From: Clostridia bacterium
GTDB lineage: Bacteria > Bacillota > Clostridia > Oscillospirales > CAG-272
Direction of reading: 5' to 3'
NCBI GenBank assembly: GCA_900767415.1
Contig: CAAFYZ010000052.1
Span: 59,660 to 123,659, forward strand
Length of the DNA stretch: 64,000 nt
Below are positions 35-21,660 of this stretch, piece after piece; position 1 is the first letter of the stretch, and each line of letters begins with the position of its first letter. A program made the position numbers and the translations under genes. The notes beneath the pieces are model-generated. The model made no database searches, was not told the origin of the DNA, and saw only the letters and a program-made list of their open reading frames with translations.

Positions 35-385
35 TCAAAGCCCCCCGCTCCCGCCGATTTTCGTAACATCTCCACCGAGCGTAACATCCTGATTGCAGAA
101 GTAGCAATGTGCGGTCATGGTACGCTGATCCCAACAGGATATATGCCCGCAGGAGCACAGGAAAAATCCTTTGGCGCCGCAATGTGGGCAACCGGGATAG
201 TTGGCGCCTTCCTCGAAGGTTCCCCGCATCGTGGTGGAAAAGCCCTGCTCACGGCGGTCTGCACCGTCTTTCAGCGGAAACGCCCACGCGTATTCCCATG
301 TGCGGCTGTTTATCTGATCAAAGCGGATCCCGAACAGTTTATTGTGCTTTGCGCATTTACATATCACTGCTACCATTTCCTTCAT
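35..385 (-). CDS. Small Cys/His-rich putative zinc-binding protein (possibly TerY-C-like, unverified)
   Basis: 116-aa ORF with clustered CKCAKH, CPHCG, CSCGHISC and HCYFC motifs. Its start lies 4 nt after the stop of the upstream transglutaminase-like gene. Confidence 0.6.
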   Translation of the reverse strand: MKEMVAVICKCAKHNKLFGIRFDQINSRTWEYAWAFPLKDGADRREQGFSTTMRGTFEEGANYPGCPHCGAKGFFLCSCGHISCWDQRTMTAHCYFCNQDVTLGGDVTKIGGSGGL

Positions 386-389
386 GCAG

Positions 390-1397
390 TTACCACCCCA
401 GTTCCATGATATTTTGACTTTGATTGACGGAAAACTGTACCCCGATCCTATCCCTTGACGGAAACAACACAGACAGCGTCTGTATAGCGGCTTGTACGAT
501 CTCTTGGTCTGTCATACCGGCACTGGTTTCTTTGCGAAAGCTGATACCATTCTGCCCGGAGCGAACCGCCGCCGAGAGAAGCCGTTGTAAGTCCTCCTTC
601 CGGCGCAGAATTGTTCTGGTATGTGTGTAATAATCCATATCGATAGTGGAACACAGCGGAAACACACCGTCTGCGACATGATCCCGCGCCATCTGCGCAT
701 CGGACAGATTGAAATAATCGTGCCGGATGCAGGACTTTCCGGAGAGATTTACATCCCATGTGACATCCAGCCAAGAGGGACGGTCGCCAATTTTTACAAG
801 ATTCCACGCATGAGACACATCGCCGGGCGCAGGATCATCGGGTCTGCTGGCTTTCCCTGTTACCACAACGCATTTGATATTCAGAGCGTTGAGAAGCAGT
901 TTTACGGTCTTGGCAATGCCCTCGCACACGGCAGATTTATAGAAAAGAACGCCGAGAATGGTATTGCTGCGATTTGCATAAGCGTCCAGGTTATTTGCCG
1001 CCACATGGTCATAAAGGACATTGCGAACCAAGATGTCGTGCAAAGACAATTCCCGTTCGTAATCGGTGCTGCCATTTACTTTGGAAAGAATCTTTTGCAG
1101 AATGGTTTGGATCTTCGCCTGCATCTGCTTCGCTTCCTGCGGTGTGTACAGATAGGATGGTTGCAGCACCTTCTCCAGTGCCGTTATGTGTCCGGGGATA
1201 TGCCGGAAATCTACATAAAACAAGTGCGGGTTGTCCATATCCACGGCATATAAAATCCTGACGGGATCAATGCCAAGCCCCGTGAGCGTCGGAATATGAA
1301 TTTCCGGTGCAAATGCTGTCAGCTCGTTGTAAATCGTCTTGTAGATTTTCTTTTCCCGGTCAGACAAGCGGGTGTAATAGTAGCGGTCGTAAACCAT
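390..1397 (-). CDS. Transglutaminase-like cysteine protease-fold protein
   Basis: Cys-His-Asp core pattern: AVCEGIAKTV ... SHAWNLVKI ... LDVTWD. The ORF extends to 1445, but the ATG at 1397 avoids overlap with the upstream gene stop at 1412. Confidence 0.7.
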   Translation of the reverse strand: MVYDRYYYTRLSDREKKIYKTIYNELTAFAPEIHIPTLTGLGIDPVRILYAVDMDNPHLFYVDFRHIPGHITALEKVLQPSYLYTPQEAKQMQAKIQTILQKILSKVNGSTDYERELSLHDILVRNVLYDHVAANNLDAYANRSNTILGVLFYKSAVCEGIAKTVKLLLNALNIKCVVVTGKASRPDDPAPGDVSHAWNLVKIGDRPSWLDVTWDVNLSGKSCIRHDYFNLSDAQMARDHVADGVFPLCSTIDMDYYTHTRTILRRKEDLQRLLSAAVRSGQNGISFRKETSAGMTDQEIVQAAIQTLSVLFPSRDRIGVQFSVNQSQNIMELGW

Positions 1398-1411
1398 ATA
1401 AACACACCAAA

Positions 1412-2854
1412 TTATTGATACCGCATCATTCGGTCGAATTCGCAAGATGCAACACCATCATCATGCTTGATTTCTTCTTCCAACTTGCGAATTTCTTCAC
1501 CATATTGTGCGCTACTTTTCTTTTTCAAAAGTTCCACCAGATTTTTCATTTCATATGTTTGATATCTGCGACTTGAATTACAAATGGCGTTCTTATACCA
1601 CTTATATGCATTTCCGAAAGATTCATCCGATTTTGTTTTCTCATACTCTTGTCTGTAGCGCTCGGCTAATTTACACTGAGTTTCATAATCGCCCATTTCT
1701 GCGTATTTCAATAGTATGCTTTCGTAGCTGGGATCGTTTTTATCTTCGTAATACCGCAACAGGAGTTTAATAAAATGAGCGTCGCCAGAGTCTGCCAACT
1801 CTGTCAAAGTTGGCAATACATCCTTCAGATAGTCCGTGTCCATCAATTCCGAAGCAATGCGATACACATTAACCATGCAAGATTTCATTTCTCTGGATTT
1901 AGATCGTCCATCTGCGAAAAACTCCAATGCTTTGTGAACATACTTCTCCCTGATTTCCGGGCTCGGTTCTTGGAGTTCAACTATATCTTCCGATTCAAGG
2001 GTATCATAGTCATCATCCATACAAATAATATCAAACCAAGGTTTTTCCTCATAGTCTCCGTAATTGACATCCCATTCTGTCATGTCTTGATAACTGCTTA
2101 CCCCGTAATCGCCATCAAGATCATATACATACAAATATGCCCGACATAGCGGCGGTATTGCTTTTTCGTATTCGCGGCGATTTGCAGCAAGCAACAATTT
2201 TTCCACGATAACATTACAATTGACCGTATCAATTTTTAGAAAGTTGCATAACTCTGTCCGGAGATTCCGGGATTTCTCCAATGCCTCTTGATATGCATTA
2301 TATGATTCTTCTGATTCAACATTATCTCTCCAGTCAGAGATGCTTCTTTCAATTTGACGCCAGATATCTGCCAAATGGTAGTACGCCATACCTACATAGT
2401 TATGATATTTGTTACACACATAAAGCCACTGTTCAAGTGCTGAAGCACTATCCAATGAGGTATTATCATATAGATTGGCATATAAATACTCTTCCAACGG
2501 CGTATCTGCGCCGAACCGACAATATTTACCTGTTTTCTGCTCGGCAAGCCATTTTAACGAATCCGCCCATAAGCCGATGCATTTATTAACAGTATCGCCG
2601 GACATACAATACTCCGATGCCAGTCTGGCTACCCATCTGCCTGTTTCCATCTTCCCAATTGAATCATGAGAAGCACTATTTTGAATCTCCTGTGCGATTC
2701 CGGACTTCGCAATGGTCACCATTACATTGAGAAATCCTTTTGATTCATCCGGAAAAAGATCAGTCAATATTGCTTTCAATTTGGCGGATTCCGTCATACA
2801 TTCGGGATAATCACTTAGGATGATTATCATATCAAGAACCTTCACCATTTTCAC
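1412..2854 (-). CDS. Protein with an island-specific N-terminal domain and C-terminal Sel1/TPR-like repeats
   Basis: 480-aa ORF. Sel1-like signatures occur near the C-terminus (LLKYAEMGDYETQCKLAERY, AYKWYKNA). The N-terminal ~95 aa align with the N-terminus of the 7637..8632 product. Start is GTG 2854 or ATG 2848. Confidence 0.65.
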   Translation of the reverse strand: MKMVKVLDMIIILSDYPECMTESAKLKAILTDLFPDESKGFLNVMVTIAKSGIAQEIQNSASHDSIGKMETGRWVARLASEYCMSGDTVNKCIGLWADSLKWLAEQKTGKYCRFGADTPLEEYLYANLYDNTSLDSASALEQWLYVCNKYHNYVGMAYYHLADIWRQIERSISDWRDNVESEESYNAYQEALEKSRNLRTELCNFLKIDTVNCNVIVEKLLLAANRREYEKAIPPLCRAYLYVYDLDGDYGVSSYQDMTEWDVNYGDYEEKPWFDIICMDDDYDTLESEDIVELQEPSPEIREKYVHKALEFFADGRSKSREMKSCMVNVYRIASELMDTDYLKDVLPTLTELADSGDAHFIKLLLRYYEDKNDPSYESILLKYAEMGDYETQCKLAERYRQEYEKTKSDESFGNAYKWYKNAICNSSRRYQTYEMKNLVELLKKKSSAQYGEEIRKLEEEIKHDDGVASCEFDRMMRYQ

Positions 2855-3035
2855 CTCTGTTTTTCATTTGTAATGATGCATTCCAACCCCAAAAAAACTT
2901 CTTAATTCACCTCATTCATAAAGATATCTCATATAACTCATGATAAAAGAGTTTAGACCGTACCCGCGTTCAGCTAATGTCTTTGCTTCCTCAACAAGGT
3001 CTTCTCCTGCAGATTCATACGAATAGCGATATATT

Positions 3036-3983
3036 TTAGAAGTTCCGCGAAACTTTACATCGATGTAAGTTCGAGTTAATAAACCTACAGATACTTGCCA
3101 AATCGGGAAATAGTTTTGGGGTAGTAATCTTCATTTCATTTAGCAACTCTCGTAGCTCTGCTTTATTTTCGTTTGGAATTACATAGATGTGCTTTATTTT
3201 GTCCTGTATTTCTTCAATCAAATGCTCCTTGATTTCTTCAAGTGAGGAGCAATATGTCTCGGGGGATAAAAAGCGACAAATCTGAAAAATTCCTTCCTGT
3301 GCTATGATTCGTGGATTGGCATCGTTTGTTTCTAAAAAACATAGGTTGCGGTCTATTTTAACTTTGATATCGAAATCGTTTTTGCTAATTGTGTTTTTGG
3401 GATTATCAGCGTGGCCTTGTTTATTTTCAGGGCAATCCATCCAGTCCAAATTTTTCTGTAGTTGCCACTTTCGCTTGTATGTAAATTCGTCTTCTTGTGC
3501 TGTTGTTTCCCTGAAATAGAAAAAATCGTTGATTGTATATTCAACATCGGCGGCTAAAATATATGAGTCAACTTCATTTTCCTCGTTATTGATCGCAAAG
3601 AACAAAGCGACCAAAGGGTTATATGTCCAATCAAGAAGTCTTGTTCTCAAACCGTAATGCTGTGCACTGGCGATCCAGTCTGCCAGACTTTCATAGTAAG
3701 GAAGATACTGTATTGAGTAGCGATTGTAGTCCTCATACAAACTGTTTTCGTATTTTCGTAATTCTGCGTGATTACTTATTTTATCCGAAAGACCTCTTAA
3801 TACTGTCGGAAACAATTCGTTATCATATGTAAGTCCTCGAAAGGCGATTTTACAATCGCTATCTTTAGAATGCCTTTCGAACATTACATCTTTGATATTA
3901 TCTTTTGTCAGAATTATATTTTCTTTGTTTTCCAGGAGCAACTGAATAATATCCTGTCTTTTATCCGGCACTTCTCTGCTCAT
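3036..3983 (-). CDS. FRG-domain protein
   Basis: 315-aa ORF with FRGLTYDNELFPTVLRG and AQHYGLRTRLLDWTYNPLVALFFA, which match the remembered FRG-domain signature. It lies 39 nt downstream of the PP2C gene. Confidence 0.7.
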   Translation of the reverse strand: MSREVPDKRQDIIQLLLENKENIILTKDNIKDVMFERHSKDSDCKIAFRGLTYDNELFPTVLRGLSDKISNHAELRKYENSLYEDYNRYSIQYLPYYESLADWIASAQHYGLRTRLLDWTYNPLVALFFAINNEENEVDSYILAADVEYTINDFFYFRETTAQEDEFTYKRKWQLQKNLDWMDCPENKQGHADNPKNTISKNDFDIKVKIDRNLCFLETNDANPRIIAQEGIFQICRFLSPETYCSSLEEIKEHLIEEIQDKIKHIYVIPNENKAELRELLNEMKITTPKLFPDLASICRFINSNLHRCKVSRNF

Positions 3984-4022
3984 GATTTTTTCTCCTTAGA
4001 CTTTTTGCATGTAGTTAAATTC

Positions 4023-4898
4023 TTATTTTGCTTTCCTACAAATAATCGCCACGCTGAGGTCATCGCCGCTTCCTTTTTCGGAAAGGCGGGGGAGAAATTC
4101 GGCAAGTTCGTCATGAGCATCCTTTCGCTGTTGCTCCCGGTAGCCCGCAAAGATGTTTTCAATGAAGCCGAGGTATGCCTGTTCGCTCTGATAGGAATTG
4201 ATTATTCCGTCCGTAGTCAGGATCAGTCCCTGCACATCCCGTCGATCATTCAGGCGGCAGAAACAATGCTTGAATGCCACATCTGCATCGCTATTGCAAA
4301 GAGAAGTTGTCAGATTGAACTGTAATTCATCGTCTTCCAGCTGTGGGAACAGATGATTTAACAATTGTGCGCGCAAATCCCGTGTCAAAAGACAGGCATT
4401 TCCGTCGCCGAGTTTCAGAACGAAAAAGCAGGAATCTGTCAGCACTGCCGCAATGAAGGTCGCGCCGTAGGCTTTGACGGGAGATTTCACCAATGCGGCG
4501 CGGTCACCTTTCTCCAGTGCCCGATAGCGGTCATCCATTTCTAACGGATGGTCGGCAAGGTCTGCCGCTACCCGTTCATGCCAATGCTGAATGATGGAAC
4601 GCTCCAGTTGCGAGAGCATTTTCTCCCGCTCCCCATTTTGCGTGTAGAACTCTCGGCGAAAATCCCGATTGTTCTCCAGTGTCGTCATGAAGGTGGAGAG
4701 AACCTCTTTTCCGACCTCGCAGGCAAAACGGGAGCCCGTTGCACTGCGGATATATTTCTCCCCGCCGTGTCCGTCACTGATGATGATTCCGTCGTATTTC
4801 TTCTCCTGCCAGCAGAGGGACGAATCCTGACATTCCTTTCCGGCACGGATATGCGAAAAGCCCTGTACGGACAAACAATCCGCTTTGTTTCGTTGCAT
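4023..4898 (-). CDS. PP2C-family Ser/Thr protein phosphatase
   Basis: Motifs CQDSSL, IIISDGHGGEKY, LGDGNACLL, LILTTDGI. The ATG at 4898 is preceded by GGAGG with ~8 nt spacing. Alternative starts are 4931 and 5012 (ORF track). Confidence 0.8.
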   Translation of the reverse strand: MQRNKADCLSVQGFSHIRAGKECQDSSLCWQEKKYDGIIISDGHGGEKYIRSATGSRFACEVGKEVLSTFMTTLENNRDFRREFYTQNGEREKMLSQLERSIIQHWHERVAADLADHPLEMDDRYRALEKGDRAALVKSPVKAYGATFIAAVLTDSCFFVLKLGDGNACLLTRDLRAQLLNHLFPQLEDDELQFNLTTSLCNSDADVAFKHCFCRLNDRRDVQGLILTTDGIINSYQSEQAYLGFIENIFAGYREQQRKDAHDELAEFLPRLSEKGSGDDLSVAIICRKAK

Positions 4899-4935
4899 CC
4901 CGTCGTCCTCCTGTTGCCAAAATAGTCCCATCGTA

Positions 4936-6081
4936 TCACCACTGGCTGTCGTCAATGTCCGGGATGTCCACCACAATCGGCTGATTGTCGTCGATGTTGG
5001 CGAGGGCTTCATTGACCGCCGTCTGCGGGTCTTTTCCGGCAGAGCTGGTGGTTCCGGTCTTGGAGACGGTTGCCGTTACGAATTTGATGTACTGCCGGAT
5101 CTTTTCGGGATCATCAATCGAAACCACCGCTTCCTTGGAGCCGCAGACCTCGCCGAGAATGTCCTTATTGGCGTCCTCACCGACCGCAAAAGCGACCTTG
5201 ACCGCCGCCTTGAACCAATTGTTCTTGCGAAGCTCGCACAGAGGCGTTTCCCAATCGTCGGTCGGCTCACCGTCGCTCAGAAGGATGATACCGGGAGCAA
5301 GATAGCCCATCGGGTTGTCACCGAGAAATGCCTTTCTCGACATTTTCTCATTGAGCGAACGCAATGCCGCACCGAGGGAGGTCAGCCCGCCTGCGCTGAT
5401 GTCGTGCCAGATGTTCATGAACTCGTCCGGCGACACCGGCTGCGGAGTGATCCAATTCACATCGTTCGAGAAGGATGCCGCCGCGACCACAATGTTGGCG
5501 TTCGGCGCACCGTCCGCCACATCCTTGATGATCTTCGGGATGTCCTTCATTGCATAATTGACCTGTCCGATCTTCGTACCGCTCATACTGCCCGATTGAT
5601 CGAACAGGTAAAAGAGTGCCATGGTTCTTGCCGCTACTTCTTCAATGTTATCGCCATCGTATCTGCTCATTTTTCTGTTACCGTCCTTTGTTGTTTTGTT
5701 TGTTATATTTTGGGGTTCTTTCTTGGGTTGTTCATTCTTTGATTCTTTTTTCGGCTGCGTTGCATCTGCCCGCGCCAGCTCCTGCACCTTGAAAAGCGTA
5801 GCGATAATGTGCTTGCACGCGCCGTCATACTTGGAGAATGCGGGGCAATCGCAGTCGCAGACCGCCAGTTTGTTGCCCCGGAATTCCAGATGCACGGTAT
5901 AAAAATCCATCCCTGCCACCTCTGCGTCAAAGGTGTGTCGATCCCGGCTTTCCCGCAGGGCGGTGATAAAATTCTTTTCGTAATAGTCCTTGCCCTTCGC
6001 ATAAGTGATCGCCTTGTCGGTCAGGGAGCGGATATACGAATCCGTGATGTTCGGATACTTCTCCATGTCAGCTCTGCGCAT
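4936..6081 (-). CDS. SWIM zinc-finger plus von Willebrand factor A (TerY-like vWA) protein
   Basis: N-terminal CDCDCPAFSKYDGACKH (SWIM CxCxnCxH). vWA MIDAS motif LFDQSGSMSG and ILLSDGEPTD. The alternative ATG at 6066 lies 1 nt after the kinase stop. Confidence 0.8.
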   Translation of the reverse strand: MRRADMEKYPNITDSYIRSLTDKAITYAKGKDYYEKNFITALRESRDRHTFDAEVAGMDFYTVHLEFRGNKLAVCDCDCPAFSKYDGACKHIIATLFKVQELARADATQPKKESKNEQPKKEPQNITNKTTKDGNRKMSRYDGDNIEEVAARTMALFYLFDQSGSMSGTKIGQVNYAMKDIPKIIKDVADGAPNANIVVAAASFSNDVNWITPQPVSPDEFMNIWHDISAGGLTSLGAALRSLNEKMSRKAFLGDNPMGYLAPGIILLSDGEPTDDWETPLCELRKNNWFKAAVKVAFAVGEDANKDILGEVCGSKEAVVSIDDPEKIRQYIKFVTATVSKTGTTSSAGKDPQTAVNEALANIDDNQPIVVDIPDIDDSQW

Positions 6082-7408
6082 CCGGTGCGGATGACAACAC
6101 CCGCACGGACTTGTTTCCGATCTGAATTATCGTTCCGGGAATCAGCGAAACGGTCTTGCCGGGCTCATAATTCATCATCGGCTTGCCGGGATAATTTACT
6201 GCCCAGATCTGCGAGGAATCGTTGCGCAGACCGAACGTACCGGGCGTTTTCTTGCTTTCCATAAAGGTGCCGACCACGGTTTCCCGACTGCCATAGGAAA
6301 TATGCGCCTCGGTCACGGTCTTTCCTTTTCCGGCAACGATCTCGGTGCCGCCGACTTCAATTTTTACGGGAACAGCCGCCCTCTTGCGGCATCCCGGCAC
6401 GGTGCAGGAGAATACGCCGTCTGTTGCCATGGACGCAAAATTGATCTCCCCGCAACCGGGGCAGATTACCGCATCGTCAAGCAGGCGATACAGCACCCGC
6501 TTCCACGCCATTTCGCTCAGACGCTTGGAACCGTTTTTCAGCCCGTCCTCCGAAAATGCCTGCTGAAAGGCATCATGCAGATATTCGGGGTAGATGGGCC
6601 ACAGGTTCATCAGATTGGAGCTTGTCCCTCTCACGGGGGCATTAGAGCGGTCGGTGTTACTGCACACGAACACCGGGTGAATGGCGTACAGATCCTTTTC
6701 GATCTGTTGCGTCAGGCAGGGGTATTTACAGCAGTTCGCCCCCTCAAGCGGATGCGCGAGGAAAAACAGTTCAAACAGAATGACCGAGAGTGAGAACAGG
6801 TCGGTGTCGGTGCTCGGCTTGCTTGTCCCCAACACCACTTCGGGCGCCATATAACCGGGTGTGCCGCCAACGCCGAGGTTGTCCCCGTTCGGTGCTACAT
6901 TGTCGTTATCGCAGATCAGCACATCTCCCGTCTTTTTGTCAATGAAGAAGTTGCCCGGACTCAGATCCTGATAGCTGAGCCCCTTTCTATGTAGCGCCTG
7001 GAAAGCTTCCACCACATGGATCGCCGCCGTGATGACCGCTTCCGTGCTGGCGAAATGCTCCTTTGCCTTGATGAACTTGGTAAACTCCGCATAATTCTGC
7101 GGGCGCAGATCCATGATGTAGCCGAAGCCCTTGCTGTGCGCCCCCGTGACCGCAACGGCTTTCATCCACAGGAATTGGTCGGACGGACTGCCGCTTGTCA
7201 CATTGTCCACAAGGTTCTGATAGAATTTGTTGCAGTTGGGCTTGAGCGACTTCAGGTAGGTCGGCAGATACCATTTCAGCGCATAGTCCTTGCCGTCGTA
7301 GTCCACCTTATAAACGCTGCCTTGCCCGCCCTCGCCGATTTTCGACTTGACCGTAACCGTCCCGCCGTTGGTTAGTTTAATTTTTGTGCCTGGTTTGAAG
7401 TCTGACAT
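6068..7408 (-). CDS. Hanks-type Ser/Thr protein kinase with C-terminal zinc ribbon and FHA-like domain
   Basis: Gly-loop GEGGQGSVY, lysine motif YALKW, catalytic loop YQDLSPGNF, DND (DFG-like) and GTPGYMAPE. Then CPGCGE..CTVPGC, followed by a tail of FHA-like pattern (FGLRNDSSQIW...GTIIQIG). Confidence 0.85.
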   Translation of the reverse strand: MSDFKPGTKIKLTNGGTVTVKSKIGEGGQGSVYKVDYDGKDYALKWYLPTYLKSLKPNCNKFYQNLVDNVTSGSPSDQFLWMKAVAVTGAHSKGFGYIMDLRPQNYAEFTKFIKAKEHFASTEAVITAAIHVVEAFQALHRKGLSYQDLSPGNFFIDKKTGDVLICDNDNVAPNGDNLGVGGTPGYMAPEVVLGTSKPSTDTDLFSLSVILFELFFLAHPLEGANCCKYPCLTQQIEKDLYAIHPVFVCSNTDRSNAPVRGTSSNLMNLWPIYPEYLHDAFQQAFSEDGLKNGSKRLSEMAWKRVLYRLLDDAVICPGCGEINFASMATDGVFSCTVPGCRKRAAVPVKIEVGGTEIVAGKGKTVTEAHISYGSRETVVGTFMESKKTPGTFGLRNDSSQIWAVNYPGKPMMNYEPGKTVSLIPGTIIQIGNKSVRVLSSAPDAQS

Positions 7409-7636
7409 GAGATGCTTGTCCTTTCGTTTGATGTATGCTTACTATATTTTGTATGCGGATTTAGTAACCTTGTTATATTATCTTTCATTCCGGAAAAGAA
7501 AACTTGATATCCACTTTTCTGAAGCATTGCTCAACCACATGAAGGCGGTTATATACGTGCTAACGCACCTCGGATAATGTGTTGACGCCCGCAACTTCGC
7601 ACCTTCTGTGCTGTGGAAGATTTTTGATTGGAAAAA

Positions 7637-8632
7637 CTAAGAGTTTAGCGTAATCCACAAAGCAGGGCGAACACAGCAGTCATCAGTACGGACATCGTGA
7701 TAAACTTTGGAACCGCTGATTGCACCGGCTGTGCCAACAAAGTCAGCACAAAACCGACTAACGCCGGGCGACCGCATCCACCACGAGCACCAAATAGCTG
7801 AACCGCCTTTGACATAATTGTCACTTGTATAAGCGCCGTTCGCTTTTGCATAGGCCGTTGGGACGCACTTTCTGGCGTCGTCATTTCCGAAATACTTATT
7901 TACCTCGTCAAAGCTGAGCAGAAACACCTTATCCATGGTAGCATTACCGGGATTGGTGCAAAATTTGGGATTCTTGTCCGCGGGGACGGTAGTACTGACA
8001 ATCTTTATCTGATCTGCGGCACTAAATGCGGCATTCAAAAAAGTACTATTCAGCCATTCGCGTAGAGAACATGTTTCCCATGTCACATCAGCGTAGGTGT
8101 CGTTATATTTCTGACAATCAAGAGCTTTTTCGCTGATCAAGAGAATTTTATTGTCCTCTTTCGCCAAAACAAGCCATTTGATTGGTTGCTTGCCGTTTGA
8201 GGTATTATTATCTTGTTGGTATGCCCCGAATGTATAAATGTCACCGACCTCAACAGACGATTGCTCACTTTGACTATTGTCATTTTGAACCTTGGAGCGA
8301 GCGGCGTTTGCTTTTTGCTCTGCACTTGCCTTTATCTCTAACTGCACCCCTACAGCACTACACCACAGTTGCAGGCAGTTTTCTGCCGTTTCACCGGTAA
8401 AACCATAGTCATCATCCAAAACCTTTTTCCATCGGCTCATATCCAATGCGGACGGATTTTTACTTGCCTGCATTTCCGAAACAATCCCACAATGTTGGAT
8501 AGCAACCAATATATTTACCATCCCGCGTTTACATTGAGGGTATAGGTCAAGGATGTATGCTTTTAGTTTTGTACCGTCCGTCAGCACTTCCGGATATTGC
8601 TCTATGAGCTGTTTCAAATCAATTTGTTCCAT
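7637..8632 (-). CDS. Protein with an island-specific N-terminal domain and a C-terminal DUF6273-like domain
   Basis: 331-aa ORF. The C-terminal pattern IKWLVL..ISEKALD..WETCSLREWLN..FLLS..E..WWMRSPG..VRPALWI is recalled as DUF6273-type. The N-terminus is homologous to the 1412..2854 product. RBS AGAGGT precedes the ATG. Confidence 0.6.
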   Translation of the reverse strand: MEQIDLKQLIEQYPEVLTDGTKLKAYILDLYPQCKRGMVNILVAIQHCGIVSEMQASKNPSALDMSRWKKVLDDDYGFTGETAENCLQLWCSAVGVQLEIKASAEQKANAARSKVQNDNSQSEQSSVEVGDIYTFGAYQQDNNTSNGKQPIKWLVLAKEDNKILLISEKALDCQKYNDTYADVTWETCSLREWLNSTFLNAAFSAADQIKIVSTTVPADKNPKFCTNPGNATMDKVFLLSFDEVNKYFGNDDARKCVPTAYAKANGAYTSDNYVKGGSAIWCSWWMRSPGVSRFCADFVGTAGAISGSKVYHDVRTDDCCVRPALWITLNS

Positions 8633-8650
8633 GTGAACCTCTGCGTTATT

Positions 8651-9145
8651 TCAAAGAATCAAATCCAATGCCGCTTTTGCAATGGTGCCATCGGGTAACA
8701 GCAAGGTAAAGGTCTTATTCCCGAATTGCAGTTCCATTCCGTTGGTATAGGGAGTGACCGCCGTCAGCTTGCTGATCTTTTGGTCAAAGCCGAATTTCCT
8801 TGCCACAAAGACAATTCGCCGACCGGTGAAATACAGTATGCCCTTCGTGTATTCCGGTTCCACCACTGGTACACTCTTGGTTTTTCCCATATGATAGGTA
8901 AAGCCCTTGAATACCCGATAACTTGCTCCGCGGTGTCGGCTTTCGTAATGCTTTTTCTCGGTAATGATGGCAGCGATATCGACGAAATGGCAGGTTTCAC
9001 CGCCATTCAAAATCAATTTATCCGTCTGTAAATTCGGAAGCATCCCGGCATAAATTTTTTGCGCCGCCTGCGGTGGCAAAATGGAAAGCAATACCGGCGG
9101 CTGAATCGGCGGGTCTATGCCGAAAAGATATGAAAAAAGTCCCAT
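8651..9145 (-). CDS. Hypothetical protein, possible bacterial PH/GRAM-like fold
   Basis: 164-aa ORF with strong RBS GGAGG 6 nt upstream. The GILYFTGRRIVFVA pattern resembles bPH/GRAM strands. It is the first gene downstream of the inverted-repeat switch. Confidence 0.5.
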   Translation of the reverse strand: MGLFSYLFGIDPPIQPPVLLSILPPQAAQKIYAGMLPNLQTDKLILNGGETCHFVDIAAIITEKKHYESRHRGASYRVFKGFTYHMGKTKSVPVVEPEYTKGILYFTGRRIVFVARKFGFDQKISKLTAVTPYTNGMELQFGNKTFTLLLPDGTIAKAALDLIL

Positions 9146-9260
9146 GTCGTCCTCCTGCTCTGTTTGTTTGCGTACCGTCTGGCGGCAACGAACACCGGCA
9201 AGATTCCATCCACATGGGACGATTACAGCTTTGCATAGGTGAAAAATGGGAAGGCTGTTT

Positions 9261-9282
9261 TTTTCACCTATTACTATAATAG
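9261..9282. repeat. Left arm of the 22-bp perfect inverted repeat (TTTTCACCTATTACTATAATAG)
   Basis: Exact reverse complement of 9416..9437. An additional copy of the ATAGGTGAAAA core at 9235..9245 forms a local hairpin with this arm. Confidence 0.9.
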
Positions 9283-9367
9283 ATGAAAAAATTGCGGCAA
9301 TTTCTCGTGCATTTCACGCATTTTTGAAAAAAGCCGCCTCTTTTGACAGTATAATGTTGGAATAATA

Positions 9368-9396
9368 TTGACTTTTCACTGTCATTTTGATATAAT
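9368..9396 (+). promoter_or_regulatory. Consensus sigma-A-type promoter inside the repeat-bracketed segment
   Basis: TTGACT (9368..9373), 17-nt spacer, TATAAT (9391..9396). In this assembly it points toward the 3' end of the recombinase gene (antisense) and away from the cargo genes. Confidence 0.6.
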
Positions 9397-9415
9397 TATA
9401 GAAGAAGTTGTGTAC

Positions 9416-9437
9416 CTATTATAGTAATAGGTGAAAA
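9416..9437. repeat. Right arm of the 22-bp perfect inverted repeat (CTATTATAGTAATAGGTGAAAA)
   Basis: Exact reverse complement of 9261..9282. It ends 2 nt before the recombinase stop codon (9440..9442). Confidence 0.9.
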
Positions 9438-9439
9438 TA

Positions 9440-10363
9440 TCAAAGCAGTTTCCCGAGGCGGTTCATCATCTCGTGTTTATGCGGCATCAAGCTGTGAACA
9501 TAGCGATTCAGCGTGACGGTCGGGTTCTTGTGACCGAGGATTTCCGACAGCGTTTTGACATCCATTCCGCACTCCAACGCGCGGGTGGCAAAGGTATGCC
9601 GCAGGGCGTGAAACCCGCGATGCGGAATGCCGACCCGACGGAGTAGCAAGCTAAAACTGTATTGATAAGAGCGCACCGTTTGCACCTTGTCCTCTCCGAC
9701 AACAAAGGCGGAGGAGGACTTTTTCTTTTGCTCCCGCAGAAGCGGCAACAGTTGCTTCGGAATCGGAACGATACGGCGGGAGGTCGGCGTTTTCGGCGCT
9801 TCTATAAGGCGGCAGTATCTGCCGTCTTTGTTGCTGTCGTGACAACTTTTATTTACGGAAATCTCGCCTTTTGCAAAATCGATGTCAGACCACTCAAGCG
9901 CGAGCAGTTCTCCGATGCGCAACCCCGTGTATAAACAAAGCACGATTCCGAACATCTTCGGGCGCCTGTCGGCAAGTACCGCCGCTACGATCTTTTTCTG
10001 TTCCTCTACCGTAAAACACTCGATTTGCTTTTCCGCCGCCTTCGGGCGCTTTACCTGATCGGCAGTATATTTCGGAAGATAGCCGAGATGATACGCCACC
10101 TGCAAAGCGACTTGTATCACCGTGACAATCGCATTCACCGTATTGGCAGACAGCCCGCCGCCGGTCCGAAGATTGCCATGCGCGGAAAGTTCCGTTACCA
10201 TTTGTTGCAGCGTCAGCGGCGTGACCTCCGACATCTCCGATTCTCCGATACGCGGTATCAAATGCTGTATCACGACCTCGGAATAACGAGTATAAGTTTT
10301 CTCTTTTGCCGTCGGTTTCACATAATTTTCAAGCCATACCGGTAACCATTCCTTGATTTTCAT
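9440..10363 (-). CDS. Tyrosine site-specific recombinase (integrase/invertase family)
   Basis: 307 aa. The C-terminal catalytic region is HALRHTFATRALECGMDVKTLSEILGHKNPTVTLNRYVH (R..HxxR..Y pattern), and the N-terminus is a SAM-like domain. Confidence 0.9.
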   Translation of the reverse strand: MKIKEWLPVWLENYVKPTAKEKTYTRYSEVVIQHLIPRIGESEMSEVTPLTLQQMVTELSAHGNLRTGGGLSANTVNAIVTVIQVALQVAYHLGYLPKYTADQVKRPKAAEKQIECFTVEEQKKIVAAVLADRRPKMFGIVLCLYTGLRIGELLALEWSDIDFAKGEISVNKSCHDSNKDGRYCRLIEAPKTPTSRRIVPIPKQLLPLLREQKKKSSSAFVVGEDKVQTVRSYQYSFSLLLRRVGIPHRGFHALRHTFATRALECGMDVKTLSEILGHKNPTVTLNRYVHSLMPHKHEMMNRLGKLL

Positions 10364-16185: not shown

Positions 16186-18807
16186 ATGGAATGGACATCA
16201 CTCAACGATCTGCGCGAAAAGTTCCTCTCTTTCTTTGAATCGAAGGGACACCTTCGTCTCCCGAGCTTTTCCCTGATCCCGAACCACGACAAATCCCTGC
16301 TCCTCATCAACTCGGGCATGGCGCCGATGAAGAAGTTCTTCACGGGAGAAGAAGTCCCGCCCCGCCGCCGCGTGTGCACCTGTCAGAAGTGCATCCGTAC
16401 CCCCGACCTCGAGCGCGTCGGTCATACGGCACGGCACGGCACATATTTTGAGATGCTCGGCAACTTCTCTTTCGGCGATTATTTCAAAAAAGAAGCGATT
16501 CCGTGGGCATGGGAATTTCTGAACGGCGTCCTCGAGATCCCGAAGGATCTGCTCTGGCCGTCGGTCTACGAGAAGGACGAGGAGGCATACGCCATCTGGC
16601 GCGACGTCATCGGCATCTCCGAAGATCACATCGTCCGCCTCGGCAAAGAAGACAACTTCTGGGAGCACGGCTCGGGTCCCTGCGGCCCCTGCTCCGAGAT
16701 CTATTTCGACCGCGGCGAAAAGTACGGCTGCGGCTCTCCCGACTGTAAGCCGGGGTGCGACTGCGACCGCTTCATGGAGATCTGGAACAACGTGTTCTCC
16801 CAGTTCAATAACGACGGCCACGGCAACTACACCGAGTTGAAACAGAAGAACATCGACACCGGCATGGGTCTTGAGCGTCTCGCCTGCGTCATGCAGGGGG
16901 TGGACAACCTCTTCGAGGTGGACACCGTGCGCAGGATTCTCGATACCGTCTGCGGGATCGCCGGCAAAAAATACGGCGCGGACGCAAAAGACGATATTTC
17001 CATCCGTGTCGTGACCGACCATATCCGCAGTGCGACCTTCATGATTTCCGACGGCGTCATTCCGTCGAACGAGGGACGCGGCTACGTCCTGCGCCGCATC
17101 CTGCGCCGCGCCTGCCGCCACGGGAAACTGCTCGGCATCTCCCGTGCGTTCCTTCCCGAACTCTGCGAGGTGGTCATCTCGCAAAACGAAGGGGCGTACC
17201 CCGAGCTGAAAGAGAAGAAAGACTATCTTCTCAAGGTCATCGCACTGGAAGAGAGCCGTTTCTCGAAGACGATCGACGCGGGGCTCTCGATCCTCTCCTC
17301 GGTGATCGAAGACACGAAGAAAAAGGGCGAGCGCGTCCTCTCGGGTGCCGACGCCTTCAAACTCTACGATACCTACGGTTTCCCCGTCGATCTGACGCGG
17401 GAGATCGCGGCGGAAGCCGATCTTACCATCGACGACGCGGCGTTCTCTTCCCTGATGGAAGAACAGCGCGCCCGCGCCCGTGCCGCCCGCGGCAACATCT
17501 CGGGGTGGTCGGATTCGTCGAAGGATCTGCTCTCGCACCTGCCGAAGACCGACTTCGTCGGTTACGATAGCGACGAGTGCGAAGCGCGCGTGCTCTCGAT
17601 CCTCGCGGACGAAGAAGCCGTCGACGAGGCGAGCGAGGGAGAATGTTCTCTCGTCTTCGACCGCACCGTCTTCTACGGCGAGGGCGGCGGACAGGTCGGG
17701 GACACCGGCAAAATTACGGGCGGCGACGTCACGCTGACGGTACTTGACACGAAGAAGACGAACGACATCTACGTTCATCTGGTAAAAATCGAAAACGGCG
17801 TGGTCAGAGTCGGAGATACCCTCCGTCTCGCGATCGACAAAGAACGCCGCGCCGCCATCCGCAGAAACCATACGGCGGCACACCTTCTGCAGGCGGCTCT
17901 GCGCGAGGTGCTCGGCGCGCACGTCGAACAGGCGGGCTCGTATGTGGACGAGCGGGAAGTCCGTTTCGACTTCACGCACTTCCAGGGCATGAGTGCGGAA
18001 GAGATCGCCCGCACGGAAGAGATCGTGAACGGGCACATCCTCGCGGCAGAACCCTGCGAGACGGTCGTCACCGACGTGGAAAGTGCGAAGAAGACGGGCG
18101 CGACGGCTCTCTTCGGCGAAAAATACGGAGACAAGGTGCGCGTCGTGCGCGCGGGTGTCTCCTCCCTCGAACTCTGCGGCGGAACGCACGTCGCAAATAC
18201 CGGCAACATCGGACTGTTCCGTATTCTCTCCGAGACATCGGTCGCGGCGGGAGTACGCCGTATCGTGGGCGTGACGGGACTCGGCGTCCTTCGCCTGCTC
18301 TCGGAGCGGGAAGGACTGATCGCCGAGACGGCGCGCGAGCTGAAAGCACAGAACCCCGCCGACATCGCGAAAAAGGCGCACGCGCTCCAGGGCGAGATCA
18401 AAGAGGCGCACCGCGAGGCGGAATCTCTGCTCGCAAAGAATGCGGAGCTGGAAGCCGCGGGGCTCTTCGACCGTGTGAAGACGGTCGGCAAGATGAAACT
18501 CCTCACCGCAAAACTCTCCATGCGTCCCGACGCGGCACGCGGGCTTGCCGACACGGTCAAGGCAAAACTGCCGGACGGCGTCGCGGTCTTCGCCGTCGTC
18601 TCGGACGGGAAGCTGAATTTCATCGCCGCCGCGGGACCCGAGGCGGTCAAAGCCGGCGCACACGCCGGCAAGATCCTCTCCGAAGTCTCCGCCGTCACGG
18701 GCGGCAAAGGCGGCGGGCGTCCCGACAGCGCGATGAGCGGCGGACGCGACCTCGACAAGATCGACGCGGCACTGAAGAGAGCCGAAGAGATCGTCGCGGC
18801 ACTCTGA
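16186..18807 (+). CDS. alaS: Alanine--tRNA ligase
   Basis: 873 aa. MEWTSLNDLREKFLSFFESKGH, FTGEEVPP, CQKCIRT and a C-terminal DHHA1-type region. Full-length AlaRS architecture. Confidence 0.95.
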   Translation: MEWTSLNDLREKFLSFFESKGHLRLPSFSLIPNHDKSLLLINSGMAPMKKFFTGEEVPPRRRVCTCQKCIRTPDLERVGHTARHGTYFEMLGNFSFGDYFKKEAIPWAWEFLNGVLEIPKDLLWPSVYEKDEEAYAIWRDVIGISEDHIVRLGKEDNFWEHGSGPCGPCSEIYFDRGEKYGCGSPDCKPGCDCDRFMEIWNNVFSQFNNDGHGNYTELKQKNIDTGMGLERLACVMQGVDNLFEVDTVRRILDTVCGIAGKKYGADAKDDISIRVVTDHIRSATFMISDGVIPSNEGRGYVLRRILRRACRHGKLLGISRAFLPELCEVVISQNEGAYPELKEKKDYLLKVIALEESRFSKTIDAGLSILSSVIEDTKKKGERVLSGADAFKLYDTYGFPVDLTREIAAEADLTIDDAAFSSLMEEQRARARAARGNISGWSDSSKDLLSHLPKTDFVGYDSDECEARVLSILADEEAVDEASEGECSLVFDRTVFYGEGGGQVGDTGKITGGDVTLTVLDTKKTNDIYVHLVKIENGVVRVGDTLRLAIDKERRAAIRRNHTAAHLLQAALREVLGAHVEQAGSYVDEREVRFDFTHFQGMSAEEIARTEEIVNGHILAAEPCETVVTDVESAKKTGATALFGEKYGDKVRVVRAGVSSLELCGGTHVANTGNIGLFRILSETSVAAGVRRIVGVTGLGVLRLLSEREGLIAETARELKAQNPADIAKKAHALQGEIKEAHREAESLLAKNAELEAAGLFDRVKTVGKMKLLTAKLSMRPDAARGLADTVKAKLPDGVAVFAVVSDGKLNFIAAAGPEAVKAGAHAGKILSEVSAVTGGKGGGRPDSAMSGGRDLDKIDAALKRAEEIVAAL

Positions 18808-18821
18808 TAATATGGAAAGCA

Positions 18822-18853
18822 AAGCCCCCAGGCAGACCCCCCGGGGGCTTTTT
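18822..18853 (+). terminator. Rho-independent terminator after alaS
   Basis: AGCCCCC..GGGGGCT G+C-rich stem followed by TTTTT. Confidence 0.8.
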
Positions 18854-19140
18854 GTATGTATTTTGAAAAGAATTATTTGCCTTTTTCGTTTATCTAAGAT
18901 TGGCGTAAGAAACCTTTTTCATTCTTCTTTTGATTCGTCAGGTTCCGAAGACAGAGTAAGTCCTTTCTTACGGAAGAGATCTCCGACGCCGAAGCGCTTT
19001 TCGCAGGTGCCTCCTCCACCCCCCGACATAGATCAGTATGTCCTCGCCGCCTTTCTCTCATACAGATCTTCCAAGCGGTACCTTAACTGGGAGAAATAGA
19101 AAATGGAAACACAAAGTAATAAATCTTAAAAAGCGTTCTC

Positions 19141-19169
19141 TTGATTTCCTTGCTTTAACAGTGTATAAT
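19141..19169 (+). promoter_or_regulatory. Promoter of the low-G+C orphan gene
   Basis: TTGATT, 17-nt spacer, TATAAT. RBS GAGG lies 5 nt before the ATG at 19213. Confidence 0.55.
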
Positions 19170-19212
19170 ATTGTATATATAAATACAAACGAAAAACAAA
19201 TGTGAGGTTTAT

Positions 19213-20532
19213 ATGACACGGCAAGAAATATTAAAAGAAGCAAAAATGCCTTATTCAGTGCTGATTCAATATTTAATCCAAAAATACGGAGCAGCCGAGC
19301 ATGATTATTTTGCAACTGAAAGTCTCAAGTCAAAAAACAGGAAAGCGTCTCGCACCTCTGAGGGGCTTTATTGCCACCATATGGACGAAGATAAAGGAGG
19401 GAATCTTTCAACTCTTCCTCAAGCCAAAATGCAACCCTTTGCATGGCAAAAGAAAGAGCGCTTGGTATATTGCAATGCGATCGAACACTTAATTCTACAT
19501 ATAAAAATTTTAGTTATGCGATGGAGAGTAAAAGACATAGAAACCCCCGCCGATGTTTTTCGCTTTCATAGCACTGGAGGCGCTATGAGGATTGCAAGCG
19601 ATATCGATGATATGTTTATGACTGACGGAACCACTCTTTCGTGGAAGCAACATTGTTTTGCAGCAATAAAAGATAACTATATAGATTATGTTGATTTGAT
19701 AGCGGCTCTCATGAAATACATAGATATTAACTACACCGGGATAAGAAGTGCTACTTCGGTATTGCAAGAAAGAATCATAAACTTAGATAATTTAACGGAA
19801 ATTCCGAAATTCATTCCAAAGGAAGACCTTTATAACGATAAGAATACTACAAGTCTTCCGTATGCTGAGATGAGTTATGCTGATGTTTATGAACTTAATA
19901 TAAGAGATTTGGCGACTGGTTATAGTAACTTTTATCCAAGCATCTACTTTGATGTTAAAAATAACTCTTCTAAATTTGTGCAAGACTATGCTGAAGCATT
20001 TTCAGTAGATTTCATCGGTTATGGTTATCCTGAATTTTCCGACATCAAATTAGATACAAATTTTCACGCAAAAAATGCTGACGAATATATATCAAAAGCT
20101 CTGCCTATGTACAGTGAAACAAACTACGATTTCAAACAAAAGAAGTGTGTGTTTTGGCAAGGAGAAATTCCGGACTTCGTACTTAATGATGACAAAATGT
20201 TTTTCATCGTTAGATTGAGCGCTATGTTCAAAATAAAAGACGGTGAAACTCCGTTTGTCAGATACAGAGAATATGGGGATCTTCGCAGATTTCCAATGAC
20301 AATCAAACTTTCTGCCTCTCATAATTTTATTCATGACGACTATAAAATAATCGACACATCTTTACTATATGATAGCAAAACAAACAGTTGGTGTTCAAAA
20401 ATCAAGGACTTCTCCGGAAATATCAAAGACATAAGAGTGATATTAACTCTCGGGAAAGAAGATTTTTTCTTATTTCTAAAAACGCACACCATTTTTTCAC
20501 TTCAAACACTTGATGGCTGTTATTTTGTTTGA
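19213..20532 (+). CDS. Hypothetical protein with an N-terminal HNH-like (beta-beta-alpha-Me) motif; very low G+C
   Basis: 439-aa ORF. EGLYCHHMDEDKGGNLS ... LVYCNAIEHLILH resembles an HNH nuclease core. The remaining ~330 aa has no recognisable motif. Composition is far more AT-rich than the flanks. Confidence 0.6.
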   Translation: MTRQEILKEAKMPYSVLIQYLIQKYGAAEHDYFATESLKSKNRKASRTSEGLYCHHMDEDKGGNLSTLPQAKMQPFAWQKKERLVYCNAIEHLILHIKILVMRWRVKDIETPADVFRFHSTGGAMRIASDIDDMFMTDGTTLSWKQHCFAAIKDNYIDYVDLIAALMKYIDINYTGIRSATSVLQERIINLDNLTEIPKFIPKEDLYNDKNTTSLPYAEMSYADVYELNIRDLATGYSNFYPSIYFDVKNNSSKFVQDYAEAFSVDFIGYGYPEFSDIKLDTNFHAKNADEYISKALPMYSETNYDFKQKKCVFWQGEIPDFVLNDDKMFFIVRLSAMFKIKDGETPFVRYREYGDLRRFPMTIKLSASHNFIHDDYKIIDTSLLYDSKTNSWCSKIKDFSGNIKDIRVILTLGKEDFFLFLKTHTIFSLQTLDGCYFV

Positions 20533-20600
20533 ATGACGCTCGAACAAAAAAGTCTTTCAAGAAGTAAGAATTGTGGCTTTTTAATATAAACTACGTATAG

Positions 20601-20640
20601 CAGTAAAGGCAGTCCGTAAAACCACGGACTGCCTTTACTG
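20601..20640. terminator. Bidirectional hairpin between convergent genes
   Basis: AGTAAAGGCAGTCCGT ... ACGGACTGCCTTTACT, a 16-bp perfect stem that overlaps the stop of the 20635..21210 gene. Confidence 0.7.
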
Positions 20641-21210: not shown

Positions 21211-21660
21211 TTAACCAAAGGTAATGGTACCGATATAGATCACGGCACCGTCCTTCACGTGCATATCCTTCGCGCCGACGCCGGCACTTGTAAGGGTCTG
21301 TCCCTTATACTCCACCGTCGACTTGTATTCCGACACGTCGAAGTCTTCTTCTACCGAAGTATAAAGATAAATATAGCGGTTTCCTTCCTGTTTCAGGTCG
21401 CCGACGGCAGTCAAAAAGCCGCCCGCCTCGGTGTAGTCAAGTCCCTTTTCCGCTTTCAGATACGCGAGAACGGAGAGCAGACCGTCCGAGCCCTCGACCT
21501 TGTCAAGATTCACCTTATATTCGGTCGGGGTCTCGGTCCCGATCACGAGGGTGGCGAATCCGGTTTTGCTGTTTTCCCCGCAGGACGCGAGCGCGCACAG
21601 CAGCATCGCGACGACGAGAACGACGGAAAGAATCCGTCCGATGTTTTTTTGCTTTGTCAT
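21211..21660 (-). CDS. Lipoprotein, DUF4430-like (transcobalamin-like B12-binding fold predicted)
   Basis: The ATG at 21660 gives MTKQKNIGRILSVVLVVAMLLCALASCG (lipobox). The longer ORF to 21867 would run through the riboswitch. Confidence 0.6.
   Translation of the reverse strand: MTKQKNIGRILSVVLVVAMLLCALASCGENSKTGFATLVIGTETPTEYKVNLDKVEGSDGLLSVLAYLKAEKGLDYTEAGGFLTAVGDLKQEGNRYIYLYTSVEEDFDVSEYKSTVEYKGQTLTSAGVGAKDMHVKDGAVIYIGTITFG

Follow-up and report, generated by a model that had tools for sequence, protein, structure and literature searches.

The TerY-P triad combines a TerY-like vWA (von Willebrand factor A) protein, a phosphatase of the PP2C type and a Ser/Thr kinase (STK), and has been proposed (PMC11090510, PMC4978471) to constitute a phosphorylation-dependent switch. 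PMC11090510 also relates the proposal that this switch senses metals and is tied to tellurite resistance, and cites Gao et al. (2020) for TerY-P-like modules that are stand-alone anti-phage systems. For such modules, the literature consulted offers only proposals as to their role; no trigger, effector or substrate of the kinase is named in it. Here we describe a nine-gene locus (g1 to g9, Table 1) lying in a 64,000-nt stretch of DNA from a Clostridia bacterium of the Oscillospirales lineage CAG-272 (contig CAAFYZ010000052.1, positions 59,660 to 123,659), hereafter referred to as the window. An earlier note, made from the sequence alone, had placed a kinase, vWA and PP2C triad of this locus within a larger candidate conflict or signalling system, and knew of no described system with its composition. 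The core of the locus is in fact a TerY-P-type triad, and the cysteine-rich protein encoded by its last gene is the TerY-C domain of such systems, here stand-alone. The locus is therefore an expanded TerY-P variant rather than a new kind of system, and its nine genes are modular rather than a fixed unit. The reading that we favour, with a probability of about 0.55, is that of a mobile sensor–switch–effector defence cassette organized around the TerY-P core, most likely anti-phage and of the abortive-infection type.

The three adjacent components of the triad were confirmed by Pfam as Pkinase (g3), VWA (g4) and PP2C_2 (g5). The G-loop, K45, D148, N153, D167 and APE motif of the kinase are invariant in 30 homologues, and the translations reveal an intact metal-ion-dependent adhesion site (MIDAS; DQSGS…T…D) in the vWA domain of g4 and a DGHGG motif in g5. 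An AlphaFold2 model of g3 (pLDDT 91.9) comprises a Hanks-type kinase, matched by fold, followed by a Zn ribbon and a beta-rich domain. A tblastn search with g3 matched kinases of enterobacterial ter plasmids with 24.6–26.5% identity over residues 73-439 (E ~1e-13 to 1e-15), an alignment encompassing 82% of its length, C-terminal extension included. The cluster around the ter-plasmid hit that was inspected (H4) comprises terW, VWA, TerD, VWA, a vWA+TerY-C protein, PP2C and the kinase. On a plasmid of Prevotella sp. E2-28 (L117), the PGAP annotation shows a helix-turn-helix (HTH) protein, a stand-alone TerY-C, STK, VWA and PP2C in a row. At L117 1106-5730 and 14318-15382, the same plasmid bears two ADP-ribosylglycohydrolase genes on the opposite strand just upstream of this cluster, and, downstream and on the strand of the cluster, genes for a formylglycine-generating-enzyme-family protein and a 3'-5' exonuclease.

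Compared with the TerY-P of ter clusters (Anantharaman, Iyer and Aravind, 2012), as summarised in PMC11090510 and PMC4978471, the locus shares the vWA protein with MIDAS, the PP2C, the Hanks-type kinase with a C-terminal extension and TerY-C, and it has in common with the TerY-P and TerY-P-like anti-phage modules (Gao et al., 2020, as cited in PMC11090510) a mobile, conflict-type context. It differs from the ter plasmid in gene order (STK–vWA–PP2C versus vWA(+TerY-C)–PP2C–STK) and in encoding TerY-C separately, at the cassette's far end, rather than fused to vWA, and from TerY-P more generally in the SWIM finger at the N-terminus of its vWA protein and in the addition of a conserved g7, a transglutaminase-like (TGase) gene and variable slots. 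The SWIM fusion is limited to a clade of close relatives, and most triad vWA proteins span ~245 aa. The kinase tail may also set the locus apart: defence versions of TerY-P are described with an OB fold, and the window kinase carries a Zn ribbon plus a beta-rich domain. A Pfam search of residues 300-446 for an FHA or OB identity gave a weak Zn-ribbon match alone, and kinase-domain matches swamped a fold search for the tail, for which we retain the label 'Zn ribbon plus beta-rich domain'. Kinases with a 'zinc ribbon and beta-strand-rich domain' have been described beside PP2C and vWA (PMC7159879). The triads of those conflict operons resemble the one in the window in the fusion of kinase and Zn ribbon, to which the actinobacterial theme adds a beta-strand-rich domain, and in serving as an add-on switch within a larger conflict operon. 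Unlike them, the window has no McrBC/CnuH/HEPN or GTPase partners, and presents instead repeat proteins with a shared N-terminal domain (hereafter N-dom), a TGase-like peptidase and a protein related by family to ADP-ribosyltransferases (ART).

Using a 30-sequence kinase alignment, we fetched 87 loci, 80 of them from genomes and 7 viral, which belong to Firmicutes, Bacteroidota, Spirochaetota, Synergistota and other phyla. The STK>vWA>PP2C order is kept in almost every one of them for which the contig is long enough, with PP2C always after the vWA gene. Accessory families were counted over 84 triad loci by searching called open reading frames (ORFs) with iterated hidden Markov models, distinguishing ORFs at most four genes from the triad (near) from those beyond (far). 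N-dom is found near the triad in 35 of the 84 loci (49 near ORFs versus 7 far, p=4e-10), TerY-C in 18 (18 near versus 3 far, p=5e-4), mostly immediately upstream of the kinase, and TGase in 13 (13 near versus 0 far, p=6e-5). These near-triad accessories almost always lie on the strand of the triad, and TGase and N-dom tend to occur together (12/14 versus 26/70 loci, p=0.001). The family of the small PH-like g1 product is near the triad in 4 of the 84 loci, which is not significant, and the SWIM finger and the C-terminal region of g7 were matched in the query locus only. N-dom is fused to vWA in one locus (L056), and STK to vWA in another (L069). In L072, a single 498-aa protein (1863-3359), encoded directly upstream of the triad kinase, joins Transglut_core to a C-terminal module aligning with the triad-kinase profile at positions 269-427, which correspond to the Zn ribbon and beta-rich domain. 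As gene fusions, N-dom–vWA and TGase–ZnR/beta would argue for physical coupling of the components. A Pfam census of 96 unlabelled neighbours revealed no dominant family; repeat proteins recur among them (TPR, Sel1, Ank, LRR), and TerD lies beside two of the scanned triads. The triad thus sits in a larger, recurrently linked gene set. A co-occurrence search of the kind that the earlier note had proposed uncovered conserved linkage beyond the triad, and its idea of a larger system withstands in part the refutation that it had set.

The N-dom itself was identified as a region common to g2 and g7 (32% identity over 94 aa). It is a helical domain of ~95 aa, with one invariant Asp within an L-x-D-L-x-P motif of the alignment, and has no model match in Pfam, NCBIfam or PHROGs; a sequence-profile search of the PDB for its fold yielded designed helical-repeat artefacts only. 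In an exhaustive HMMER search, 1,219 representative clusters (50% identity) contained N-dom with E<=1e-3, 287 of them reaching E<=1e-10, and the domain lay almost always within residues 1-100 of proteins of 100-976 aa. The C-termini of 121 representatives carry LRR_5 (67), DUF6273 (11), Sel1 (4), RCC1 (3), RNA polymerase alpha-CTD (3), tubulin (2), and FtsK, HIRAN, VWA and S1 (1 each). Further fusions, to WG repeats and to DEAD helicases, occur beside triads. With its almost constant N-terminal position and variable, mostly repeat-type C-termini, N-dom looks like an adaptor, as judged from domain architecture. This arrangement is reminiscent of the STAND/NLR-like Avs proteins and effector-associated adaptor domains (EADs; Kaur et al., 2020, PMC7159879), in which a small helical adaptor found on several proteins of a locus is joined to diversified repeats (LRR, TPR/Sel1, beta-propellers). 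Unlike the Avs/EAD systems, the window has no STAND NTPase, and N-dom matches no known model or solved-structure sequence.

We also examined five N-dom anchors chosen independently of the triad from 13 short proteins of the profile search. Two lie with a triad (L118, L120), two belong to a single triad-less cluster type (L089-L095) and one is a remnant (L119). N-dom is therefore often but not exclusively triad-linked. The triad-less cluster (L089 4359-12256, with the same cluster in L090-L095) is a conserved, co-directional set of ~11 genes with almost no Pfam matches. Its products include a Sel1 protein of 542 aa and a short protein with N-dom, together with a strong g8 TGase homologue. The cluster adjoins PemK or a serine recombinase/relaxase; it may represent a second, triad-less system using N-dom and TGase. 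The remnant (L119 4809-6820) consists of a 307-aa integrase with the two Pfam domains of the window integrase, an ORF of 55 aa and an N-dom fragment of 175 aa that shares 80% identity with the N-dom of g2. It has no triad, conjugation genes (PrgI, VirB4-like) lie upstream, and it has the appearance of a cassette copy that has decayed or recombined, on an element resembling integrative and conjugative elements.

Comparison with close relatives reveals how the locus is inherited. The reference was a European Nucleotide Archive contig carrying the same locus as the window (L001, 21 kb). The relatives share a backbone of STK (446 aa), SWIM-vWA (376 aa), PP2C (~291 aa), a slot, g7 (~478 aa), TGase (335 aa) and TerY-C (116 aa), with 91-97% nucleotide identity to L001 despite differing flanks. 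Within it, g7, TGase and TerY-C are co-inherited with the triad as a block, with ~95% nucleotide identity and in no fewer than four distinct flanking contexts. Homology breaks off at the PP2C stop codon, restarts at the start of g7 and terminates with the stop of TerY-C; its left limit, in comparisons with L105 and L111, lies 21-71 nt upstream of the start codon of the kinase. The six backbone genes are real and constrained, given the ratios of nonsynonymous to synonymous substitution rates (dN/dS) of 0.03-0.32 among four related loci; all six are under purifying selection, with g7 the fastest-evolving (dN/dS about 0.3). TerY-C is 97-98% identical in close relatives, and its tight pairing with the TGase gene is kept throughout the close clade. 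The flanks consist of NikA/ParB-type genes in L105 and of helicase-type genes ahead of an ImmA/XRE pair in L111. Since the same cassette has different flanks in its relatives, it is portable between elements. In L111 (12876-20799; also in L112 and L113), TerY-C is directly followed by a gene for a 1,499-aa MkoA/MkoC-like superfamily 1 helicase (2e-53), and then by genes for a 684-aa coiled-coil protein with weak JetC/SMC-like matches and a soluble FtsH-like AAA+/Peptidase_M41 protein (IetA-like, 1.6e-22), a set of genes that may make up another defence unit or else extend the cassette.

For g7, only eight homologues were found in a collection of 5.8 billion proteins, and no close relatives of g7 or of the slot gene g6 were present in IMG/VR; a metagenome scan for g6 likewise returned none. 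The g7 protein has no Pfam Sel1 match at E<=0.1 (its only match is TPR-S, 0.0054), and true Sel1 repeats occur in other N-dom proteins. Its structural model displays helical-hairpin repeats with weak TPR/HAT-type fold matches (pLDDT 73-91 for N-dom, 71-93 for the C-terminal repeats), and a whole-protein fold search gave no match at E<=0.001. In the TGase-like protein, C158, H196 and D211 are invariant in 15 sequences, forming a Cys-His-Asp triad.

Between PP2C and g7, the backbone is interrupted by a slot with changing occupants. In the window this is g6, an FRG-domain protein matching the PF08867 and PDC-S15 models, with 'AFRGL' at residues 47-51; a 77% identical FRG occupies the slot in L111-L114, where it is followed by an N-dom–LRR_5 gene. 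L105 and L106 carry instead a 266-aa DUF2971 protein with PDC-S31 matches, and L109 and L110 a 357-aa protein. The slot gene overlaps PP2C by 8 nt in L105 and by 4 nt in L109, is separated from it by 39 nt in the window, and in L109 also overlaps g7 by 14 nt. Between the window (3804-3983) and L111 (7510-7689), the first 60 FRG residues are identical and the remainder ~72% identical, which suggests a recombination breakpoint inside the slot gene. FRG has been described as an ART-superfamily domain and a predicted anti-viral effector, possibly an NADase (PMC9503650), and DUF2971 as a DarT/AbiGi-like ART family (PMC12522546). BLASTP detected no homology of FRG with either DUF2971 or the 357-aa protein, so the ART-like link between FRG and DUF2971 rests on these published superfamily assignments. 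Non-orthologous replacement within one superfamily would be expected of an effector slot, making g6 a candidate effector. The FRG and DUF2971 families match PADLOC PDC-S15 and PDC-S31, but in the cassettes described here these genes sit at a fixed slot inside a kinase/phosphatase operon. The earlier note had taken two features of gene spacing to suggest sub-modules; the TGase/TerY-C pair is borne out in the close clade, whereas the FRG gene after PP2C occupies a variable slot and was matched by the g6 search in none of the distant loci.

The genes upstream of the kinase are likewise variable, consisting of PH-like and N-dom–DUF6273 genes in the window and L109, PH-like and N-dom–LRR_5 genes in L105, and genes for LRR proteins and a 121-aa product in L111; the only part shared in this region is N-dom-coding, at ~80% identity. 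The g1 product has no Pfam, NCBIfam or PHROG match, and a PDB profile search with it gave chance matches only. Four of its eight relatives weakly match GRAM (best 0.0036), and weaker matches among the relatives are to Voldacs, Vps36 or bPH_3, all PH-like. Genes with 56-59% identity to g1 lie upstream of the kinase in L002-L004, adjacent to it or with one N-dom gene between. The g1 genes of L105 and L109 are 93% identical to it, and that of L105 is linked to a 90% identical integrase. From its architecture, g2 is a candidate sensor or adaptor, with DUF6273 as the putative ligand-binding domain. DUF6273 is a target domain of diversity-generating retroelements in Faecalibacterium prophages (PMC11792537). 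We considered g2 as such a target and rejected it: the 21 kb of L001 contain no direct repeat >=25 nt at the 3' end of g2, and no reverse transcriptase among the called genes.

Nine minus-strand genes between 35 and 9145 had been proposed from the ORFs of the window, and an independent gene call on L001 recovered the same nine, with slightly later starts for g4, g5, g7 and g8 (Table 1). The spacing was also as described, with 4 nt between TGase and TerY-C, 39 nt between PP2C and FRG, and only two spacers above 100 nt within the module (2855-3035 and 7409-7636). Among the domain labels of the earlier note, Pfam agreed with DUF6273, Pkinase, SWIM-vWA, PP2C, FRG, TGase and the Cys-rich protein, and the N-terminal domain shared by g2 and g7 was upheld; the Sel1 label of g7 was not, and the PH/GRAM label of g1 is loosely supported, through its relatives. 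Its larger system around the triad stands as a set of linked accessory families inherited in part as a block, and not as one nine-gene unit, g1, g2 and the FRG position being variable.

The module lies next to a tyrosine-type integrase gene. Because this gene and the next host gene are likewise on the minus strand, co-directionality alone is no marker of the upstream boundary of the module. Beyond the integrase, L001 contains ordinary host genes (GH20, ThiF, AlaS), and on the other side, 3' of g9 and outside the window, it contains small ORFs as well as genes for an HTH protein, Sipho_Gp157 and a Rad52-like protein. With the integrase and host genes on one side and phage-like early or regulatory genes on the other, the nine-gene module is cargo of a phage-like integrative element, located at the end that bears the integrase and before the early or regulatory genes; the integrase marks the host-proximal end of the carrying element and falls outside the signalling module proper. 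The GC content at third codon positions (GC3) is 0.57-0.70 for the triad, 0.57-0.61 for TGase and TerY-C, 0.46 for g2, 0.40 for g7 and 0.38 for g6, a spread consistent with a mosaic origin of the module. Two more low-GC patches (0.49 versus a background of 0.55-0.60) are visible elsewhere in the window, at 18001-22000 and 48001-50000, the former including a 439-aa plus-strand ORF at 19213-20532.

Table 1. Features of the expanded TerY-P locus and of the adjoining integrase, in window coordinates.
Feature	Position	Strand	Evidence or remark
Integrase, tyrosine type	9440..10363	-	Phage_integrase 2.8e-25 + Phage_int_SAM_3 (Pfam)
Integrase–g1 spacer, 294 nt	9146..9439	-	Likely promoter/operator region of the module (consensus matches only, function inferred)
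g1, 164 aa, PH/GRAM-like small protein	8651..9145	-	Part of the variable upstream genes
g2, 331 aa, N-dom + DUF6273	7637..8632	-	Pfam DUF6273 3.7e-28
g2 N-dom, residues 1-~99	8336-8632	-	Alignment of N-dom proteins
228-nt spacer, variable upstream genes / conserved backbone	7409..7636	-	Left junction of block homology
g3, Ser/Thr kinase (STK), 446 aa, TerY-P-type	6068..7408	-	Pkinase 6e-20
g4, SWIM zinc finger (N-terminal) + vWA, TerY-like	ORF 4936-6081, 376-aa call from 6066	-	SWIM 8.8e-8, VWA 1.8e-5
g5, PP2C phosphatase	ORF 4023-5012, 291-aa call from 4898	-	PP2C_2 1.7e-30
g6, 315 aa, FRG-domain protein	3036..3983	-	FRG 7.3e-21; PADLOC PDC-S15 7.3e-43
g7, N-dom + helical-repeat C-terminal region	ORF 1412-2854, 478-aa call from 2848	-	N-dom E=5e-21 vs g2
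g8, transglutaminase-like (TGase) cysteine peptidase	ORF 390-1445, 335-aa call from 1397	-	Transglut_core 8.7e-9
g9, 116 aa, stand-alone TerY-C metal-binding domain, 3' end of conserved block	35..385	-	TerY_C PF15616 1.8e-9, above gathering score

The spacer separating the integrase gene from g1 contains several elements recognized by consensus matching, including a terminator-like hairpin after the integrase gene (9349-9334) and a promoter-like site (9300-9273). A motif of ~38 nt is present in two inverted copies (9256-9293 and 9405-9442) that are 82% complementary, flank the terminator-like hairpin and contain the palindrome CCTATTACTATAATAGG; a further half-site, 'TTTTCACCTAT', lies nearer g1. 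These sequences may be operator or arm-type sites. A strong, TG-extended promoter-like site (TTGACT-17-TATAAT, 9368-9396) is found on the plus strand, antisense into the integrase gene. Promoter and terminator scans gave no excess over shuffled expectation, and Rfam yielded nothing credible as structured RNA in the two long spacers; the 7409-7636 spacer showed no Rfam family and no minus-strand terminator-like site.

In the favoured reading, the locus would operate in three layers. As a sensor layer, the variable parts of the N-dom proteins (BspA-type LRR, Sel1, WG, RCC1, vWA or helicase in relatives, and DUF6273 in g2 and helical repeats in g7 in the window) would bind invader-derived ligands, with N-dom docking them onto the switch. 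In the switch layer, the kinase would set a phosphorylation-dependent state that PP2C resets, in keeping with the published TerY-P proposal. The slot gene would provide the output as an effector, FRG being a predicted NADase or ADP-ribosylating enzyme, and the TGase-like thiol peptidase and TerY-C would form a processing or regulatory sub-module. What the sequences show is which genes are present, how they are related and linked, that the backbone is inherited as a block, that the slot is replaced and that selection is purifying. The contacts, the way in which signalling runs, the part of FRG as effector and the anti-phage role are what we infer, drawing on the published proposals for TerY-P, the listing of FRG and DUF2971 as PADLOC candidates and the location on a mobile element. 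The surroundings are defence-like, with FRG matching PDC-S15, DUF2971 matching PDC-S31 and an MkoA-like helicase beside the cassette in L111. As a matter of speculation, the invariant Asp of N-dom might bind the vWA MIDAS.

Several observations weigh against a cassette of this kind, and a number of them would also be expected if the locus were a defence islet of independent units, in which a stand-alone TerY-P (perhaps with TerY-C) and unrelated cargo (a single-gene FRG system, repeat proteins, TGase) had gathered at an integrase-proximal hotspot, their common orientation stemming only from the transcription of the element. The accessories are optional, none being universal across the 84 loci and many triads standing alone, and PMC11090510 presents the anti-phage TerY-P-like modules published so far as stand-alone systems. 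Upstream and slot genes are swapped among close relatives, and GC3 is heterogeneous across the module, with FRG and g7 (0.38-0.40) far below their neighbours. N-dom and TGase, which are enriched near triads, also exist together without any triad, as in the L089-L095 cluster, which has N-dom and a TGase homologue (E ~1e-102 against the profile) and no kinase, vWA or PP2C; in viral contigs, too, TGase homologues (~30% identity) mostly occur without a triad. FRG and DUF2971 match by themselves the PADLOC families PDC-S15 and PDC-S31, which we take to be single-gene candidates, so that the slot could be a mere insertion hotspot. The 357-aa protein, third occupant of the slot, lacks any recognisable domain and is uninformative. 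Outside the close clade, FRG was not found beside a triad, the g6 search across the 84 loci returning the query locus only, and neither FRG nor DUF2971 was among the families matched by two or more of the 96 neighbours in the Pfam census. Finally, a scan against PADLOC-DB, which includes TerY-P models, yielded no TerY-named model among the matches to the three core proteins (mad6 and PD-T4-6 for the kinase, PDC-S62 only, via the SWIM region, for g4, and none for PP2C), and the TerY-P assignment consequently rests on architecture and on the homology to ter-plasmid kinases. A kinase search in phage isolate genomes gave a single match, with 24% identity. An islet of independent units nonetheless sits less well with the co-inheritance of g7, TGase and TerY-C with the triad between sharp breakpoints, with slot genes that overlap their neighbours by a few nt in L105 and L109 (PP2C in both, g7 in L109), with the enrichment of N-dom, TerY-C and TGase beside triads across phyla, with the N-dom–vWA and TGase–ZnR/beta fusions and with the use of the same slot by two different ART-like families, and we regard it as unlikely.

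The cassette could also serve the element that carries it, as a kinase/phosphatase circuit sensing host state, surface or ligand cues via the repeat proteins and controlling lysogeny, excision or transfer. It adjoins the integrase upstream of early or regulatory genes, the integrase–g1 spacer contains a palindromic operator-like repeat, and a prophage kinase/phosphatase module has been reported to control both lysogeny and defence (PMC11341870). That module, KKP of Pf prophages, resembles the locus in being a prophage-borne Ser/Thr kinase and phosphatase linked to lysogeny control and phage defence, but it comprises no vWA, TerY-C, N-dom, TGase or ART-like gene, a comparison of composition and not of homology. 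Triads with the same accessories often have no integrase within 10 kb (only 6 of the 84 have one) and also reside on plasmids, the slot holds toxin-like ART-family enzymes, and the differing flanks (phage-like, ParB/NikA-type, helicase-type) point to portable cargo rather than to a core regulator; a KKP-like role for the element is accordingly distinctly improbable in our judgement. We attach still less weight to stress or metal sensing of the Ter type, a very unlikely reading in which TerY-C, SWIM and the vWA MIDAS bind metal and the output is a physiological response. The metal-sensing proposal for TerY-P (PMC11090510), with its link to tellurite resistance, and the presence of TerD beside two scanned triads and in the canonical plasmid cluster would favour such a role. 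Against it, the cassette and its close relatives have no TerD, TerC or TerB, the accessories (repeat-type binding proteins, ART-like enzymes) are of kinds that typify conflict systems, and the cassette is carried on mobile elements.

The N-dom family and its association with the triad, the g7–TGase–TerY-C extension and the ART-like slot appear to be new relative to the literature consulted, although some of this may already stand in Anantharaman et al. (2012). If the accessories were independent cargo, the finding would shrink to an ordinary TerY-P triad in a defence islet. A broader proposition, which we advance tentatively and hold to be rather less probable than not, is that TerY-P triads are the hub of a receptor-kinase-like immune pathway, in which N-dom would plug diversified cytoplasmic repeat sensors (BspA-LRR, Sel1/TPR, lectin-like DUF6273, WG and RCC1), possibly by way of the Asp–MIDAS contact, into a switch licensing interchangeable ART-superfamily effectors, with TGase and TerY-C as a processing step. 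N-dom itself constitutes a domain family of considerable size that lacks annotation and is common among the Firmicutes and Bacteroidota of the gut. As an expanded mobile TerY-P cassette, the locus and its relatives offer candidates for sensors (the N-dom repeat proteins), for a processing pair (the thiol peptidase and TerY-C) and for an effector slot, so that a system of three genes, opaque until now, yields interactions that can be tested.

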